Of a DNA stretch of 64,000 nt, positions 6,001 to 12,000 are shown piece by piece (the stretch's first letter is position 1; every line of letters begins with the position of its first letter). The position numbers were made by a program. Source of the stretch: Escherichia coli (GTDB lineage Bacteria; Pseudomonadota; Gammaproteobacteria; Enterobacterales; Enterobacteriaceae); the NCBI RefSeq assembly GCF_044324785.1, contig NZ_CP172127.1. One strand, 5' to 3'.

Positions 6001-9000
6001 GCACCGTGGCAGTTACTTGCCGATCGCAGCGAGTGGCCTGCGGTGTTTGATCGTTTAGGTGAGCTGGCGATTGTTAAGCGTCGCACTGGTGGCTATGACG
6101 GTCGCGGTCAATGGCGTTTACGCGCCGACGAAACCGAACAGTTACCGGCAGAGTGTTACGGCGAATGTATTGTCGAGCAGGGCATTAACTTCTCTGGCGA
6201 AGTGTCGCTGGTTGGCGCGCGCGGTTTTGATGGCAGCACCGTGTTTTATCCGCTGACGCATAACCTGCATCAGGAAGGCATTTTGCGCACCAGCGTCGCT
6301 TTTCCGCAGGCCAACGCACAGCAACAAACACAAGCCGAAGAGATGTTGTCGGCGATTATGCAGGAGCTGGGCTATGTAGGCGTGATGGCAATGGAGTGTT
6401 TTGTCACCCCGCAAGGTCTGTTGATCAACGAACTGGCTCCTCGTGTGCATAACAGCGGTCACTGGACACAAAACGGTGCCAGCATCAGCCAGTTTGAGCT
6501 GCATCTGCGGGCGATTACCGATCTGCCGTTACCGCAACCGGTAGTGAATAGTCCGTCGGTGATGATCAACCTGATTGGTAGCGATGTGAATTATGACTGG
6601 CTGAAACTGCCGCTGGTGCATCTGCACTGGTACGACAAAGAAGTCCGTCCGGGCCGTAAAGTGGGGCATCTGAATTTGACCGACAGCGACACATCGCGTC
6701 TGACCGCGACGCTGGAAGCATTAATCCCGCTGCTGCCGCCGGAGTATGCCAGCGGCGTGATGTGGGCGCAGAGTAAGTTCAGTTAACCTGGTGCTCATAT
6801 TCCTGCCGGATGCGGCGTGAACGCCTTATCCGACCTGTGGAAACAGTGATATTTCCAGGTCGGATAATCAGCATCGCATCAGGCACAAATACCGAATGCC
6901 TACGACTACAGCGAAATACAGGTCCCCGCTTCGCCCGCCAGCGTCTCTTCAATCCGCGATAACGCCCCAATCCACGCAGGTTTGCCACGGCTTCTGACAT
7001 AGCCACTCACCGCCGTTACCTTCGGCCCCATCGAACCATCGGCTTTGGCAAATGGCGCTAACTCATCCGGTGTGGCACGGCGAATGGCGCGTTGCTGCGG
7101 CGTTCCCCAGTTTTCATAAACCGCGTCAGCATCGGTGAGGATCACCAGTCCATCTGCATTAATCTGCTCGGCGAGCAACGCAGCGGCGAGATCTTTATCA
7201 ATCACTGCTTCACTCCCTGCTCCGTCATCCGTCACAGGCACACCGCCGCCGCCACTGCAAATCACCACATGCCCCTCTTTGAGCAACAACTCGATGGCTT
7301 CGCTGTCGAGAATTTTACGCGGTTGCGGAGACGCCACCACCCGGCGCAAATATTTACCATCACGTTTCATCTGCCAGCCGTAAGCCGCTTCCAGTGCCTC
7401 TTGTTCTTCTGGCTGATAAACCGGACCGATAAACTTCTCTGGCTGCAAAAACGCCGGATCATCAGGCGAAACCTCAATGCGCGTCAGCACCGTCGTGACA
7501 GGCGGCATCTGCGGCTGTGCGCTCAAGCTCTGCGCCAGCATATAGCCAATCATCCCCTGGCTTTCCGCCACCAGCACATCCAGCGGATACGGTTCTACCT
7601 CTTTCCACGCCAGATTCTGTAACGCCAGCAGCCCCACCTGCGGCCCGTTGCCGTGAACAATCGCCAGCCGATAAGAACGGGCCAGGCGCGCCAGCGCGGG
7701 TACAGCACTGGCAATATTGCGATATTGATTTTCTGCCGTCAGCGCCTCACCGCGCTGGAGTAAGGCGTTGCCCCCAAGAGCTACAACCAGTGTTTTCATG
7801 GTTTTCCTTGTAATAATTGTTGACCAAGCCAGAACCCCAGCAGCGTATCTGCCCCTGACGTATGCCCCAGCGCCAGCAGCGAATCAATCGCAACAGCGGT
7901 ACGTTTCGGGCAACTCAGAGCATGGACAAAGTGCAGGAGTGGCGAGGCGAAATATCCTTGCGCGGCATAACGTAAATAACTGACGCTCACCGCTGTGGTA
8001 ACGAGTTGAAGATTGTCGGAACAGGCAAAAAATGGGCGACCGGAGCGCGCATCTAAAGCGCCATAATACCAGGCCGCCAGCAGCATTCCGCTCAGCGTGT
8101 CATCATGACTCGGCGTTAATCCCGGACCTTTTCCCAGCCAGTGCCGCCAGTCGGTCTTCACGCCATTGAGCGCGGCCTGAAAACAGTGGCGAAACTGGCG
8201 TAATTCAGCAGGAAGCGGATCGCCTGCCGCCAACGCCAGTGGCCCGAAAAGCCCGGTTTCCTCCGCGCGTTGCATCCATGCAGCTGCAAGCGGTTGAGGA
8301 TGCGCAGGCGGCGTAATACGCAGCAAACAATAACGCTGTGGCTGTTTAACCGTGAAACGTCCGAGGCGAATCCCTTGAGCCACAACCTTCGGTCGTTCAT
8401 TGCCGCATAATCCACCGCATAACGCATCGAATTGCGCGCGGCGAAGCACCCATCCTCCGGGGCCGAAACCACTACCCTGACGATGCAGCGTTAACAGTTC
8501 GCCGCTTTCCGTCATCAGGTTAATCGCCCGTCGCCACACTCCCGCTAACCGCCAGGACTGGCAATAATTCGGTGCGCTACGGCTGGCAAGCAGAGGATGG
8601 ATGATCGTCATTGCGCGTTCCTCAACCTATCCCCATGCTTTCAGCCAGTGCTTCCAGCGCCTGTTCAAAGCAGGCCAACGGTGCCCGCACAGTGCCTGCG
8701 CCAATCTGCCCGATCCCCGCCTCTTTATGGGCGATACCGGTATTGATGAGTGGCGTAATGCCGGTTTCTACCACGCGACGAATATCCAGCCCCAGGCACG
8801 CGCCCTGAAAATCCCAGCTTGGGATCTGCAACTGCATATTGCGTTCAAGGTAAATTTCCGCCATCTCTTCAGATACCGCTCTGGCCGCTTCCATGCCACC
8901 CGCACCGACAAAGCGCGTTACGCCAGGCGCTGCGATCATTGCCGCACCTCCGATACCAAAGGTTTCGGTAATCGCACTATCGCCCATATCCGGGTTCGCC

Positions 9001-12000
9001 AGATCCTGCGAGAAGCCGGTGAAAAACAGACCTTGCGGAGTGTTTACAGGCGCAGTAAACCAGCGTTCGCCCAGCCCGCTGACCCGAATCCCGAACATAT
9101 TGCCGTTGCGGGTCATTGCCGTGACGATGCTGCCTGCGCGGATCATCGCGCCAGCATCCATCGCCACCTTGCAGTAAGCCATCGCGAGGTTGAGGAAGAA
9201 CTGATCGGTCACGCTGAGGAAATCCATCACTTCCGCAATGTGCTGTTTATCATGATCGAGGCGAGCAATTTGTGGGGCCAGCGTACGCATTAACAGTGCT
9301 GAGGAAGCAATATTGCGTTGATGGAACTCATCGCCCATGGTAATGCCCTGCGCCATCATTGCCGTGAGATCGATACCGCGCTCCATGCGCCCCAGCGCCG
9401 CGCTTAATACTGGCATTAACACATCGCGCATCCAGCGATGGCGAGTCAGGACATCTTCGTCGTAAGCGCCAAAACGCATCACTTTGCCGATACCTTCGTT
9501 GAGGTTGCAGTACGCCCGGTTGCCGTCGGTCACGTTCTCGACCACCAGCATCGGCATACTGGCAGAAGTAATACCGCCCATTGGCCCGACGGCATTCACA
9601 TGGTGACAAGGAATGAAGTTCACTTCCCCCTGCTCCAGTATTGCCAGCGCCTGCGCTTCATCTTTCGCCCAGCCTTCGAACAGACATGCGCCCACGCACG
9701 CCCCTTTCATGGGTCCGGTCATCTCCTGCCAGCGCATTGGCGGCCCGGCGTGAAGCAGTGTTTTGCCCTCGTTTAGTTCGCTGATAAGTGAAGAAGCCGG
9801 TTGCACATCCAGCCAGTGTGGACGAGCGCGACGAATTTGTTCGATAACCGCAGCATTGGCTTGCGCCACTGATGTAAACATGGGAACCCCTTATTGCAAA
9901 CGTTCTAATAAACGAGCCAGTTTTTTATTGCCGCCGGCGACTGGCGACCATTGGTAATGCACAACCGGTTTGCTGGCGCTTTGTAGCTCCAGCGCAAAGC
10001 TGCGTAATCCGATGTTAATCACGGCGACGTTTTCCAGTAATGACGGTGTGTGTTGCTGTGCGGCAGGCGAGAGCGGATGAATTAACGCTGCCGCCAGCAA
10101 GGTGGCTTCCGGTAGCGAACTCACGACAGCAATCCCCGCATCTTCCAGCGTGGTGATTTGCTGCGAGCGGCATTGCGGGTCACGTTCGGTACCTGTCACC
10201 GTGGCAATGGCGTACAGCGGTTGGCTGTCTGAACGCGTGGCACAGGCTTTTTGCCAGGCGCTTACCAGCGAGGCAGCAGGATCGGCGGTCGCGCCGAAGC
10301 CAATCACCACATCAAGCAGCAACACGCGCACTTGTGGTTTAGCGCCGAGATCGGCAATTAACTGGTTGCGTAAGGTTGGGTCGATCATCGGATGGGGACG
10401 CCCGACGGTGTAGAAATCATCGCCAAGGTCAATGATCTGGTGACCATCGGCATCGAGCATCATGCCGTGATGATGGGCATCGTCGGCTACCACGCCAAGG
10501 TGCCCGGCAAGTAATCCCGCCGCTTCGGCGGCCAGCGTACCGCCGGTATACAAACCGCAAATAAGTCCACTGCTGACAGGTGCTATTGCATTACGTCGCG
10601 CCGTAACGCGTGAAAGCAGGCAAGCCAGACGTGCGGCATCATCCAGCGAGGAGGCAAACCAGACATTCTCGTCGCGGGTCACCGCCGGGGTGTAACCTAA
10701 AAACAGCGCCACCGTCGGTTTGCCGGTTGCTTTCATGGCATTAACAATTTTCAGACGCACAGCTTCGGCAGGTGGTTTTGAAACAAATGCCAGCACTTCG
10801 CTTTTCTCGTCTGCGCTGAGCATTTCCAACGCCGTCAGCGCACTGATACCGCCCACTTCACGGCTGAGGTCGCGCCCGCCAAGACCAATCGCGTGAGTAA
10901 TTCCCTCACCTGCCAGCGCAATCTGCGAGCACAGTTCCTGAATCCCGGTACCGGAAGCGCCAATGACACCAATATTTCCTTCCGGCATCACGTTGGCGAA
11001 AGCCAGCGGCGTGGCGGCGATCATCGACGTACCGCAGTCCGGCCCCATCACCAGCAAGCCTTTTTCCCGAGCGCGGGTTTTGAGTTGGATTTCATCTTCC
11101 AGCGTGACGTTATCGGAGAACATCATCACGTTGAGGTTGCGATCCAGCGCCTGATTCGCCAGCTCCGCCGCATACTCGCCAGCCACTGAAATCAGCGCCA
11201 GACTGGCATCGGGTAATTTCTGACAGGCACTGTCCCAGCGACGCACCTGCGTCAACGCCTGGCTGCTGCCTGAACCCTGCGCCAGTTGTTTTAGCGCCTC
11301 TTCAAGCTGTTGCATAATCGCCTGCGCGATCCCCGCATCCGCCGCTTCGCTACGAATTGCCACGCAAATATCGTTCGGCGTGGCGTTATTAAAATCGTCA
11401 TGCCAGAAACCTGTAGTCTCTAATAACGCTTTATTGGCGGGCGTACCCATCATTACAGAAACATCATCAACATTTTCTGATTCGCTTAGTTTTCGTGAAA
11501 TAATCATTAAACTGACCGAATCCTGAAAACACCCTTTTTTAATAAAGGCGTGGATCATAACAACTCCTTAAAAATTGCACCCATGGCAATTGCACGAGCA
11601 GTGTTAATGTGGCGATTACGGTATCGATGACAACGGGTAAATAAGGTGATGAATATCACACAGGGATTATTAACAAAAGAATTCAAATAACCGCTATGCT
11701 ATTACGTGTTATTTTTTAATAAGCGTGGTTGTTTTAAAAACCAGGTTAAAAGCGAGCGGATTATCAAATAAATTCTAACTATATTTTTTTGCCTGTCTGG
11801 ATCACATAATCCAGATATTTTCCCTGTATGTTAATTGCAGTCATGCTTCACACCGTCGTTAAAAAGGAAGACAGATGAAAATCAGTCGGGAAACACTCCA
11901 CCAGCTAATCGAGAATAAACTCTGCCAGGCTGGGTTAAAACGTGAGCACGCTGCAACCGTGGCTGAAGTATTGGTTTACGCCGATGCCAGAGGGATCCAC

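Follow-up and report, generated by a model that had tools for sequence, protein, structure and literature searches.

The fdrA-ylbE-ylbF-ybcF locus (now allF-allG-allH-allK, or allFGHK) in the 64,000-nt stretch of Escherichia coli DNA analyzed here (contig NZ_CP172127.1; hereafter the window, to which all coordinates refer) raises two questions: do its products carry out the step from oxalurate to carbamoyl phosphate, and does an intact ylbE set this strain apart from K-12? A sequence-only reading of the window had put the cluster forward as a candidate for this step, and had taken ylbE to be a frameshifted pseudogene in K-12 MG1655. We found that the window locus is an ordinary, intact E. coli allFGHK operon, the function, enzymology and regulation of which were already published between 2021 and 2025. 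As a whole, the data are best explained (with a probability that we put at a little over nine in ten) if the steps worked out for K-12 allFGHK carry over to this strain by orthology, as amino acid identities of 97.5%–99.3% suggest, and if AllFGH works by the mechanism proposed below.

The window carries an intact allFGHK operon

The sequence-only reading had placed four uninterrupted genes at 6906–11558, head-to-head with allD and ending in a carbamate kinase-like gene, and all of this was borne out. Minus-strand open reading frames (ORFs) with no internal stops were found exactly there, the cluster and allD diverge across a 316-nt spacer, and YbcF passes the cut-off of the carbamate kinase equivalog NF006926 (619 bits; cut-off 416) over residues 1–296 of 297, as well as that of TIGR00746 arcC (425 bits; cut-off 358). 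FdrA scored 1035 bits against NCBIfam NF004760 (cut-off 433), YlbE matched Pfam PF06545, "Oxamate carbamoyltransferase subunit AllG" (E = 2.6e-97), and YlbF matched Pfam PF11392, "AllH" (E = 4.6e-29).

In length and frame, each of the four genes equals its counterpart in the K-12 MG1655 record NC_000913.3, with internal stops absent. The window and K-12 loci (b0518, b4572, b0520 and b0521 in K-12) share gene order, gene lengths, junctions and the 316-nt spacer, as well as their flanks, with purK on one side and allDCE on the other. The differences between them are allelic only, comprising 25 amino acid substitutions over the four proteins (Table 1) and 11 single-nucleotide polymorphisms (SNPs) in the spacer. 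None of the 14 substitutions in AllF falls on a family-invariant residue, and the product of the neighboring allD differs from that of K-12 allD by four amino acids.

The fdrA-ylbE and ylbE-ylbF junctions measure 9 and 10 nt, while ylbF and ybcF overlap by the 4 nt ATGA, which hold the allK start and the allH stop; Shine-Dalgarno-like sequences (GGAG, GAGG or AGGA) lie upstream at each operon junction. This spacing (9, 10 and −4 nt) and the Shine-Dalgarno sites are consistent with co-transcription of the four genes, and reverse transcription PCR, in K-12 only, has shown ybcF to be co-transcribed with fdrA-ylbE-ylbF (PMC9843812). Scans of the region for promoter and terminator consensus sequences yielded no excess over shuffled sequences and were uninformative.

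The function of allFGHK in K-12 and in the window strain

The earlier proposal to which the sequence-only reading alluded is that of CanOE, a gene-context prediction from 2012 naming candidates for the oxamate carbamoyltransferase (PMC3364942). Kim & Kim (2021) found that FdrA is required for oxamate formation, and that a D296Y variant accelerates it (PMC8550087). Purified YbcF was then found to be a catabolic carbamate kinase and its gene was renamed allK (Kim & Kim 2022; PMC9843812), and purified AllF-AllG-AllH was found to have oxamic transcarbamylase (OXTCase) activity, with Km values of 1.3 mM for carbamoyl phosphate and 36.9 mM for oxamate (Kim & Kim 2024; PMC11326118). FdrA alone was inactive and the purified three-protein complex was active. 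In cells, the wild type formed 17.7 mM oxamate, which accumulates as a dead end, from 19.5 mM allantoin, compared to 0, 0 and 1.2 mM in single deletions of allF, allG and allH, respectively. Oxamate formation was likewise lost in the triple allFGH deletion; the wild-type level was restored only by allFGH together, with about 16% restoration by allGH without allF (PMC11326118).

Thus, experiments with the K-12 proteins have taken the role of FdrA/YlbE/YlbF as an oxamate carbamoyltransferase feeding carbamate kinase beyond a candidate assignment (PMC11326118, PMC9843812). The further suggestion of choosing a strain with intact ylbE as the background for testing this role is moot, because the deletions and expression clones were made from MG1655, in which the decisive experiments have already been done; indeed, the whole 2021–2025 series was carried out in K-12 strains.

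In the window strain, AllD would oxidize ureidoglycolate to oxalurate, which AllF-AllG-AllH (OXTCase, EC 2.1.3.5) would convert with inorganic phosphate (Pi) to carbamoyl phosphate and the dead-end product oxamate; AllK (carbamate kinase, EC 2.7.2.2) would then use carbamoyl phosphate and ADP to form ATP, NH3 and CO2. From amino acid identities of 97.5%–98.8% to the K-12 subunits, we infer that the window AllFGH catalyzes the reversible reaction oxalurate + Pi <-> oxamate + carbamoyl phosphate. Transcription of the operon would originate in the 316-nt spacer, with AllS (allantoin signal) and ArcA (anaerobiosis) both needed, as they are in K-12. As a standard, near-universal E. coli operon, the locus matters little for the window itself. 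Genome annotations often keep uninformative or misleading names for its products, such as "acyl-CoA synthetase FdrA", "DUF1116" and "DUF2877".

Intact ylbE is the norm in E. coli

We considered that an intact ylbE might make the window strain unusual, such that only strains of this kind could run the oxamate branch. Records of frameshifted alleles lend this idea some substance. The W3110 RefSeq record (NC_007779.1; positions 1582–2840 of the extracted locus L006) has G4 in the ylbE G-run as well as an A at nt 114, and annotates the gene as "frameshifted"; the superseded MG1655 reference had the same G4 allele; and rare natural frameshifts do exist, as in strain A36 (NZ_CP028739.1; positions 301–1861 of the extracted locus L007), in which independent frameshifts affect ylbE, through a lengthened C-run near nt 1058, and also ylbF. 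However, ylbE (b4572) is an intact 419-amino-acid coding sequence in the current MG1655 record NC_000913.3. The comparison of ylbE with the K-12 allele that the sequence-only reading had called for revealed no frame difference, since both have G5 at nt 252–256, the site of the historical K-12 "frameshift"; removal of one G from this run results in a stop at codon 87. Moreover, MG1655 stocks carry the intact allele on resequencing, the pathway was demonstrated in MG1655 itself, and CanOE, which considered the frameshift a probable sequencing error, saw it in no other E. coli (PMC3364942). The supposed contrast with K-12 stems from a reference sequence that has since been replaced, and the frameshift is found only in that reference and in the W3110 record.

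The distribution of the gene points the same way. Of 5426 complete E. coli genomes, 5425 have the 5.5-kb locus region and 5417 have at least 80% of ylbE. We examined the frame in 10 annotated regions and in 40 records spaced evenly down the match ranking, and found that ylbE matched over exactly 1260 bp in 38 of the 40; of the other two, A36 is frameshifted and one is truncated. In addition, eight of eight other E. coli strains that we sampled had intact genes of identical lengths. An intact ylbE is the usual state in E. coli, and the notion that it marks an unusual strain, to which we give next to no chance, is refuted by NC_000913.3, the genome sample and the G-run comparison. The record can be corrected accordingly. 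The ylbE of the current MG1655 reference is no pseudogene, and the frameshift comes down to G4 versus G5 in one homopolymer, with G4 confined to K-12 records that are older or related, such as that of W3110.

Several observations bear on these alleles. The two ylbE changes in the W3110 record are exactly those later corrected or reported for MG1655. Both have been described as variation between MG1655 stocks (PMC4404585), and in NCM3722 the ylbE change was said to restore "an intact ancestral gene" (PMC3045373); the W3110 G4 allele may be either real or a legacy sequencing error. In strain A36, a natural isolate that came from an Australian rodent, the oxamate branch has truly been lost. The possibility that the allele or promoter in the window is exceptional was rejected, given that the genes are intact in eight of eight other strains and that the spacer allele is one SNP from that of strain CT01. 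The nearest complete E. coli genome, that of strain N3, is 98.7%–98.8% identical over 30 kb (most genomes are 97%–98.4% identical); complete genomes therefore cover the source lineage poorly.

Variation in the allD-allF spacer

Reporter assays and electrophoretic mobility shift assays (EMSAs) have shown that AllS and ArcA activate the operon and that both bind the promoter region (Kim & Kim 2025; PMC12535856); induction of the operon by allantoin under anaerobiosis is about 38-fold (PMC12535856). We located the equivalents of the two EMSA fragments by alignment of the window to K-12 (Table 1). The spacer SNPs relative to K-12 lie at 11636–11753 (−195 to −78 relative to the allF ATG), and 10 of the 11 are inside these fragments (six in that for AllS and four in that for ArcA; binomial P ~5e-4). 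Within the predicted motifs there is one at −183 for AllS and there are three, at −139, −137 and −135, for ArcA. The spacer is identical to K-12 over the 119 nt adjoining allD and the 77 nt adjoining allF. Among nine E. coli strains, variation was limited to −200 to −77, except for sites −237 and −43. Thus, the reported activator-binding stretch is the least conserved part of the spacer.

AllF resembles a succinyl-CoA synthetase without its phosphohistidine loop

No structural mechanism for AllFGH, a three-subunit transcarbamylase unrelated to aspartate transcarbamylase (ATCase) or ornithine transcarbamylase (OTCase), has been published in the literature that we searched. AllF has an N-terminal HMA-like domain, a module resembling the alpha subunit of succinyl-CoA synthetase (SCS) at residues 118–290, and a second Ligase_CoA region at residues 336–491, and matches Pfam CoA_binding (PF02629, E = 1.6e-12) and Ligase_CoA (PF00549, E = 7.8e-37) as well as PDB entry 3DMY (E = 7e-300). 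Residues 118–290 match SCS-alpha in many PDB chains (E = 2e-11 to 1e-4) and align with residues 66–238 of E. coli SucD, ending directly before the SucD MGHAGA (His247). No phosphohistidine-loop motif (GHAGA) was found in AllF, which has no His between residues 223 and 352, and neither Pfam nor NCBIfam detected an ATP-grasp domain in AllF, AllG, AllH or AllK. Likewise, structure models of AllG and AllH gave no ATP-grasp structural match. The C-terminal domain of AllF showed no significant BLASTP match and a weak Smith-Waterman alignment to SucC, and a kinship to SCS-beta is suggested by the Pfam Ligase_CoA match alone.

Nine of nine diverse AllF sequences share GPDCGT, ASGTG, GLGGRD, GGTLAxE, H373 and H389, the last in the context G-[RK]-x-H-P-M-x-D. 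One gene, at 2–1351 of the distant locus L018 (see below), was dropped from this invariant set, as it is 21% identical to AllF and the AllF motifs are absent. Two positions at which window and K-12 AllF differ deserve mention. At codon 372 (10443–10445), adjoining invariant His373, K-12 MG1655 and PDB 3DMY have Ser, compared to Gly in the window, in eight of eight other E. coli sampled and in seven distant AllF homologues; the published kinetics therefore come from an allele that is atypical at a family-conserved position. At codon 294 (10677–10679), the window carries A294T relative to K-12, two residues from the site of the D296Y gain-of-function variant (codon 296, 10671–10673), at which the window has the wild-type Asp. 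D296 is within residues 291–300, the short segment that replaces the phosphohistidine loop.

The AllH model (predicted local distance difference test [pLDDT] score 94.3) has a beta domain at its N-terminus as well as a helical domain, and in it both invariant motifs, GxGxGLTPxxDD (residues 159–170) and GHTSGAD (residues 248–254), are found at helix N-termini. The folds of AllG and AllH have no characterized relative, and that of AllH has no solved relative; PDB entry 3CLQ, listed as an "uncharacterized protein" of Enterococcus faecalis V583, has no function assigned in its deposition, and its structure is of this protein on its own, with neither AllF nor AllH as a partner.

Nucleoside diphosphate (NDP)-forming acyl-CoA synthetases require both a phosphohistidine loop and an ATP-grasp partner, and the reaction acyl-X + Pi <-> acyl-phosphate + X is one of the partial reactions of SCS. 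The SCS-type glycine-rich motifs (ASGTG, GLGGRD and GGTLAxE) are presumably phosphate-binding helix N-termini. We propose that AllF is an SCS-type module in which the alpha-like part is fused to a beta-C-terminal-like Ligase_CoA domain, and that it would keep the SCS-type phosphate site, having lost the phosphohistidine loop and having no ATP-grasp partner. Because the loop is lost and there is no ATP-grasp anywhere in the operon, AllF probably performs only the reaction acyl-X + Pi <-> acyl-phosphate + X, where acyl stands for carbamoyl and X for oxamate. AllG and AllH would complete the active site, for which H373 and H389 of AllF and H249, D169 and D170 of AllH are candidate catalytic residues.

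AllFGH is a conserved unit in distant loci

A search by AllH homologues with 27%–54% identity yielded eight distant loci, six of which encode AllF, AllG and AllH together. In four of these six (L004, L016, L019 and L020) a carbamate kinase then follows, and in three (L004, L016 and L020) there are also divergent allD-, allC- and allE-type genes. Since AllF, AllG and AllH are encoded together in distant loci, the trio is a conserved unit, as would be expected of a three-subunit enzyme.

The homologues in the other four loci lie outside allantoin clusters and have no adjacent carbamate kinase. The AllFGH genes in L003 (Anaerolineae; 1654–9852) are in a string with amidase, cyclase, molybdenum-hydroxylase and amidohydrolase genes; in L005 (4241–8051) the order is AllH-AllF-AllG, with a PucR-type regulator; L017 (2619–5164) has AllH-AllF, then an unidentified 190-amino-acid fragment at the contig end, and also a PucR-type regulator; and L018 (1351–3416) has AllG-AllH with no AllF-like neighbor, the upstream gene being the one dropped above. 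Nitrile hydratase genes were also among these contexts. The kinase-less contexts hint that the enzyme family may have other substrates.

Taken jointly, these data allow a more speculative proposal, which we hold to be possible but less probable than its converse. AllFGH might be a stripped-down SCS in which AllF is a pure phosphorolase that frees carbamoyl phosphate for a separate kinase, with the site completed by the GHAGA-like GHTSGAD loop of AllH or by H373/H389 of AllF; its kinase-less relatives (PucR-regulated and Anaerolineae-type) might phosphorolyse other N-carbamoyl or acyl-urea compounds.

Alternative explanations

We considered that FdrA might be a true acyl-CoA synthetase, for instance an oxamate:CoA ligase that disposes of oxamate, and that YlbE and/or YlbF alone might be the transcarbamylase. 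This is how CanOE read the locus in 2012, putting ylbF first and arguing that FdrA is a CoA ligase (PMC3364942), and it fits both the name "acyl-CoA synthetase FdrA" given by NCBIfam and the Prokaryotic Genome Annotation Pipeline and the CoA_binding and Ligase_CoA domains found by Pfam. However, AllF has neither a phosphohistidine loop nor an ATP-grasp partner, and oxamate is not consumed in the wild type but piles up stoichiometrically (17.7 mM of 19.5 mM allantoin). Moreover, deletion of allF alone stops oxamate formation, allGH without allF restores only about 16% of it, and the three-protein complex is active, which FdrA alone is not. The published data are thus contrary to full OXTCase activity of AllG and AllH in the absence of AllF, and we consider a CoA ligase very unlikely. 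A further alternative is that AllFGH is a broader ureide or N-carbamoyl phosphorolase, for which oxalurate is only one substrate or not the main physiological one, such that the measured activity is a side reaction. The kinetics were obtained in the synthetic direction only and the Km for oxamate is very high (36.9 mM), and AllFGH homologues occur without carbamate kinase in other contexts (L003, and the PucR-type L005 and L017). In E. coli, however, the genetics are specific: each of the three genes is needed for oxamate to be formed from allantoin. In addition, allantoin induces the operon anaerobically via AllS, and the operon adjoins allD, the product of which makes oxalurate, an arrangement kept in the distant loci L004, L016 and L020. 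We regard this alternative as unlikely; it might nonetheless apply to the distant homologues.

The reading that we prefer, in which the K-12 steps carry over to the window strain by orthology and AllFGH works as an SCS-type module, has points against it as well. On the experimental side, AllFGH was assayed from carbamoyl phosphate and oxamate, that is, in the synthetic direction, and complementation of the single mutants was incomplete or inconsistent (PMC11326118). For the window strain, OXTCase activity is inferred from K-12 orthology, and AllF carries 14 substitutions; its regulation could differ in degree from that of K-12, because 10 of the 11 spacer SNPs fall inside the EMSA fragments. 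The proposed structural mechanism is drawn from sequence and single-chain models, with just nine sequences behind the AllF invariants and with a moderate model of AllG (pLDDT 72.4; poor at residues 299–357).

Other features of the window

The coordinates of the operon, its neighbors and its sites are given in Table 1. The products of allC and allE carry out upstream steps in allantoin degradation, according to the K-12 annotation. The repetitive extragenic palindromic (REP)-type element beyond allK gave a sub-threshold match to the REP-derived Rfam family naRNA4 (34.5 bits; gathering score 59.5), and apart from this match no structured RNA was found in the region with Rfam. The allK-purK spacer differs in length between E. 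coli strains.

Positions 39001–64000 are a variable island, which is at least 80% covered in 174 of 5426 E. coli genomes, with best matches of 87%–91% identity. In matching genomes this island is annotated with a giant BapA-related adhesin SiiEA, a type I secretion ATPase/permease, an HlyD adaptor and a YadA-like adhesin.

Table 1. Features of the allFGHK region in the window, with the identity of the operon genes and their products to K-12 (aa, amino acids)
Feature	Coordinates	Strand	Description	nt identity	aa differences	aa identity
REP-type palindromic element	6793–6835	minus	Spacer between convergent allK and purK			
ybcF/allK	6906–7799	minus	297 aa; catabolic carbamate kinase; ORF call and family match	97.7%	2	99.3%
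ylbF/allH	7796–8611	minus	271 aa; third subunit; Pfam AllH, formerly DUF2877	97.2%	4	98.5%
ylbE/allG	8622–9881	minus	419 aa, intact; second subunit; Pfam AllG, formerly DUF1116	98.3%	5	98.8%
G5 homopolymer	9626–9630	minus	Historical K-12 "frameshift" site; ylbE nt 252–256			
fdrA/allF	9891–11558	minus	555 aa; oxamic transcarbamylase subunit, largest of three	96.1%	14	97.5%
allD-allF spacer	11559–11874	none	Divergent regulatory spacer; 316 nt, 36% GC			
ArcA EMSA-fragment equivalent	11641–11700		−142/−83 relative to allF ATG; alignment to K-12 (PMC12535856)			
AllS EMSA-fragment equivalent	11702–11761		−203/−144 relative to allF ATG; alignment to K-12 (PMC12535856)			
allD	11875–12924	plus	349 aa; ureidoglycolate dehydrogenase; first gene of divergent allDCE operon			
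allC	12946–14181	plus	Order and length as K-12 allC (411 aa); listed ORF begins at upstream TTG, 12928			
allE	14192–14977	plus	Order and length as K-12 allE (261 aa)			

Comparison with known systems

AllF shares with SCS, ATP-citrate lyase and the NDP-forming acyl-CoA synthetases the SCS-alpha alignment, the Ligase_CoA domain and the GPxC, SGT and GxGG motifs. It differs from this superfamily in having no GHAGA loop, no ATP-grasp domain or subunit, and an extra HMA-like N-terminal domain; moreover, AllFGH needs two unrelated partner subunits, and neither CoA nor a nucleotide takes part in its reaction.

With respect to the classical transcarbamylases, none of the four proteins matched a transcarbamylase (OTCase/ATCase) domain in Pfam or NCBIfam at E <= 1e-3, and there is no sequence or domain similarity between AllFGH and these enzymes, a conclusion also reached by the authors of PMC11326118; the classical enzymes have a homotrimeric catalytic core, in contrast to the three different subunits of AllFGH (PMC11326118). 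Nevertheless, AllFGH shares with ATCase (PyrB), OTCase (ArgF/ArgI) and YgeW the reversible transfer of a carbamoyl group between phosphate and a nitrogen acceptor, and AllFGH with carbamate kinase forms an ATP-yielding pair similar to that of catabolic OTCase and ArcC in the arginine deiminase pathway.

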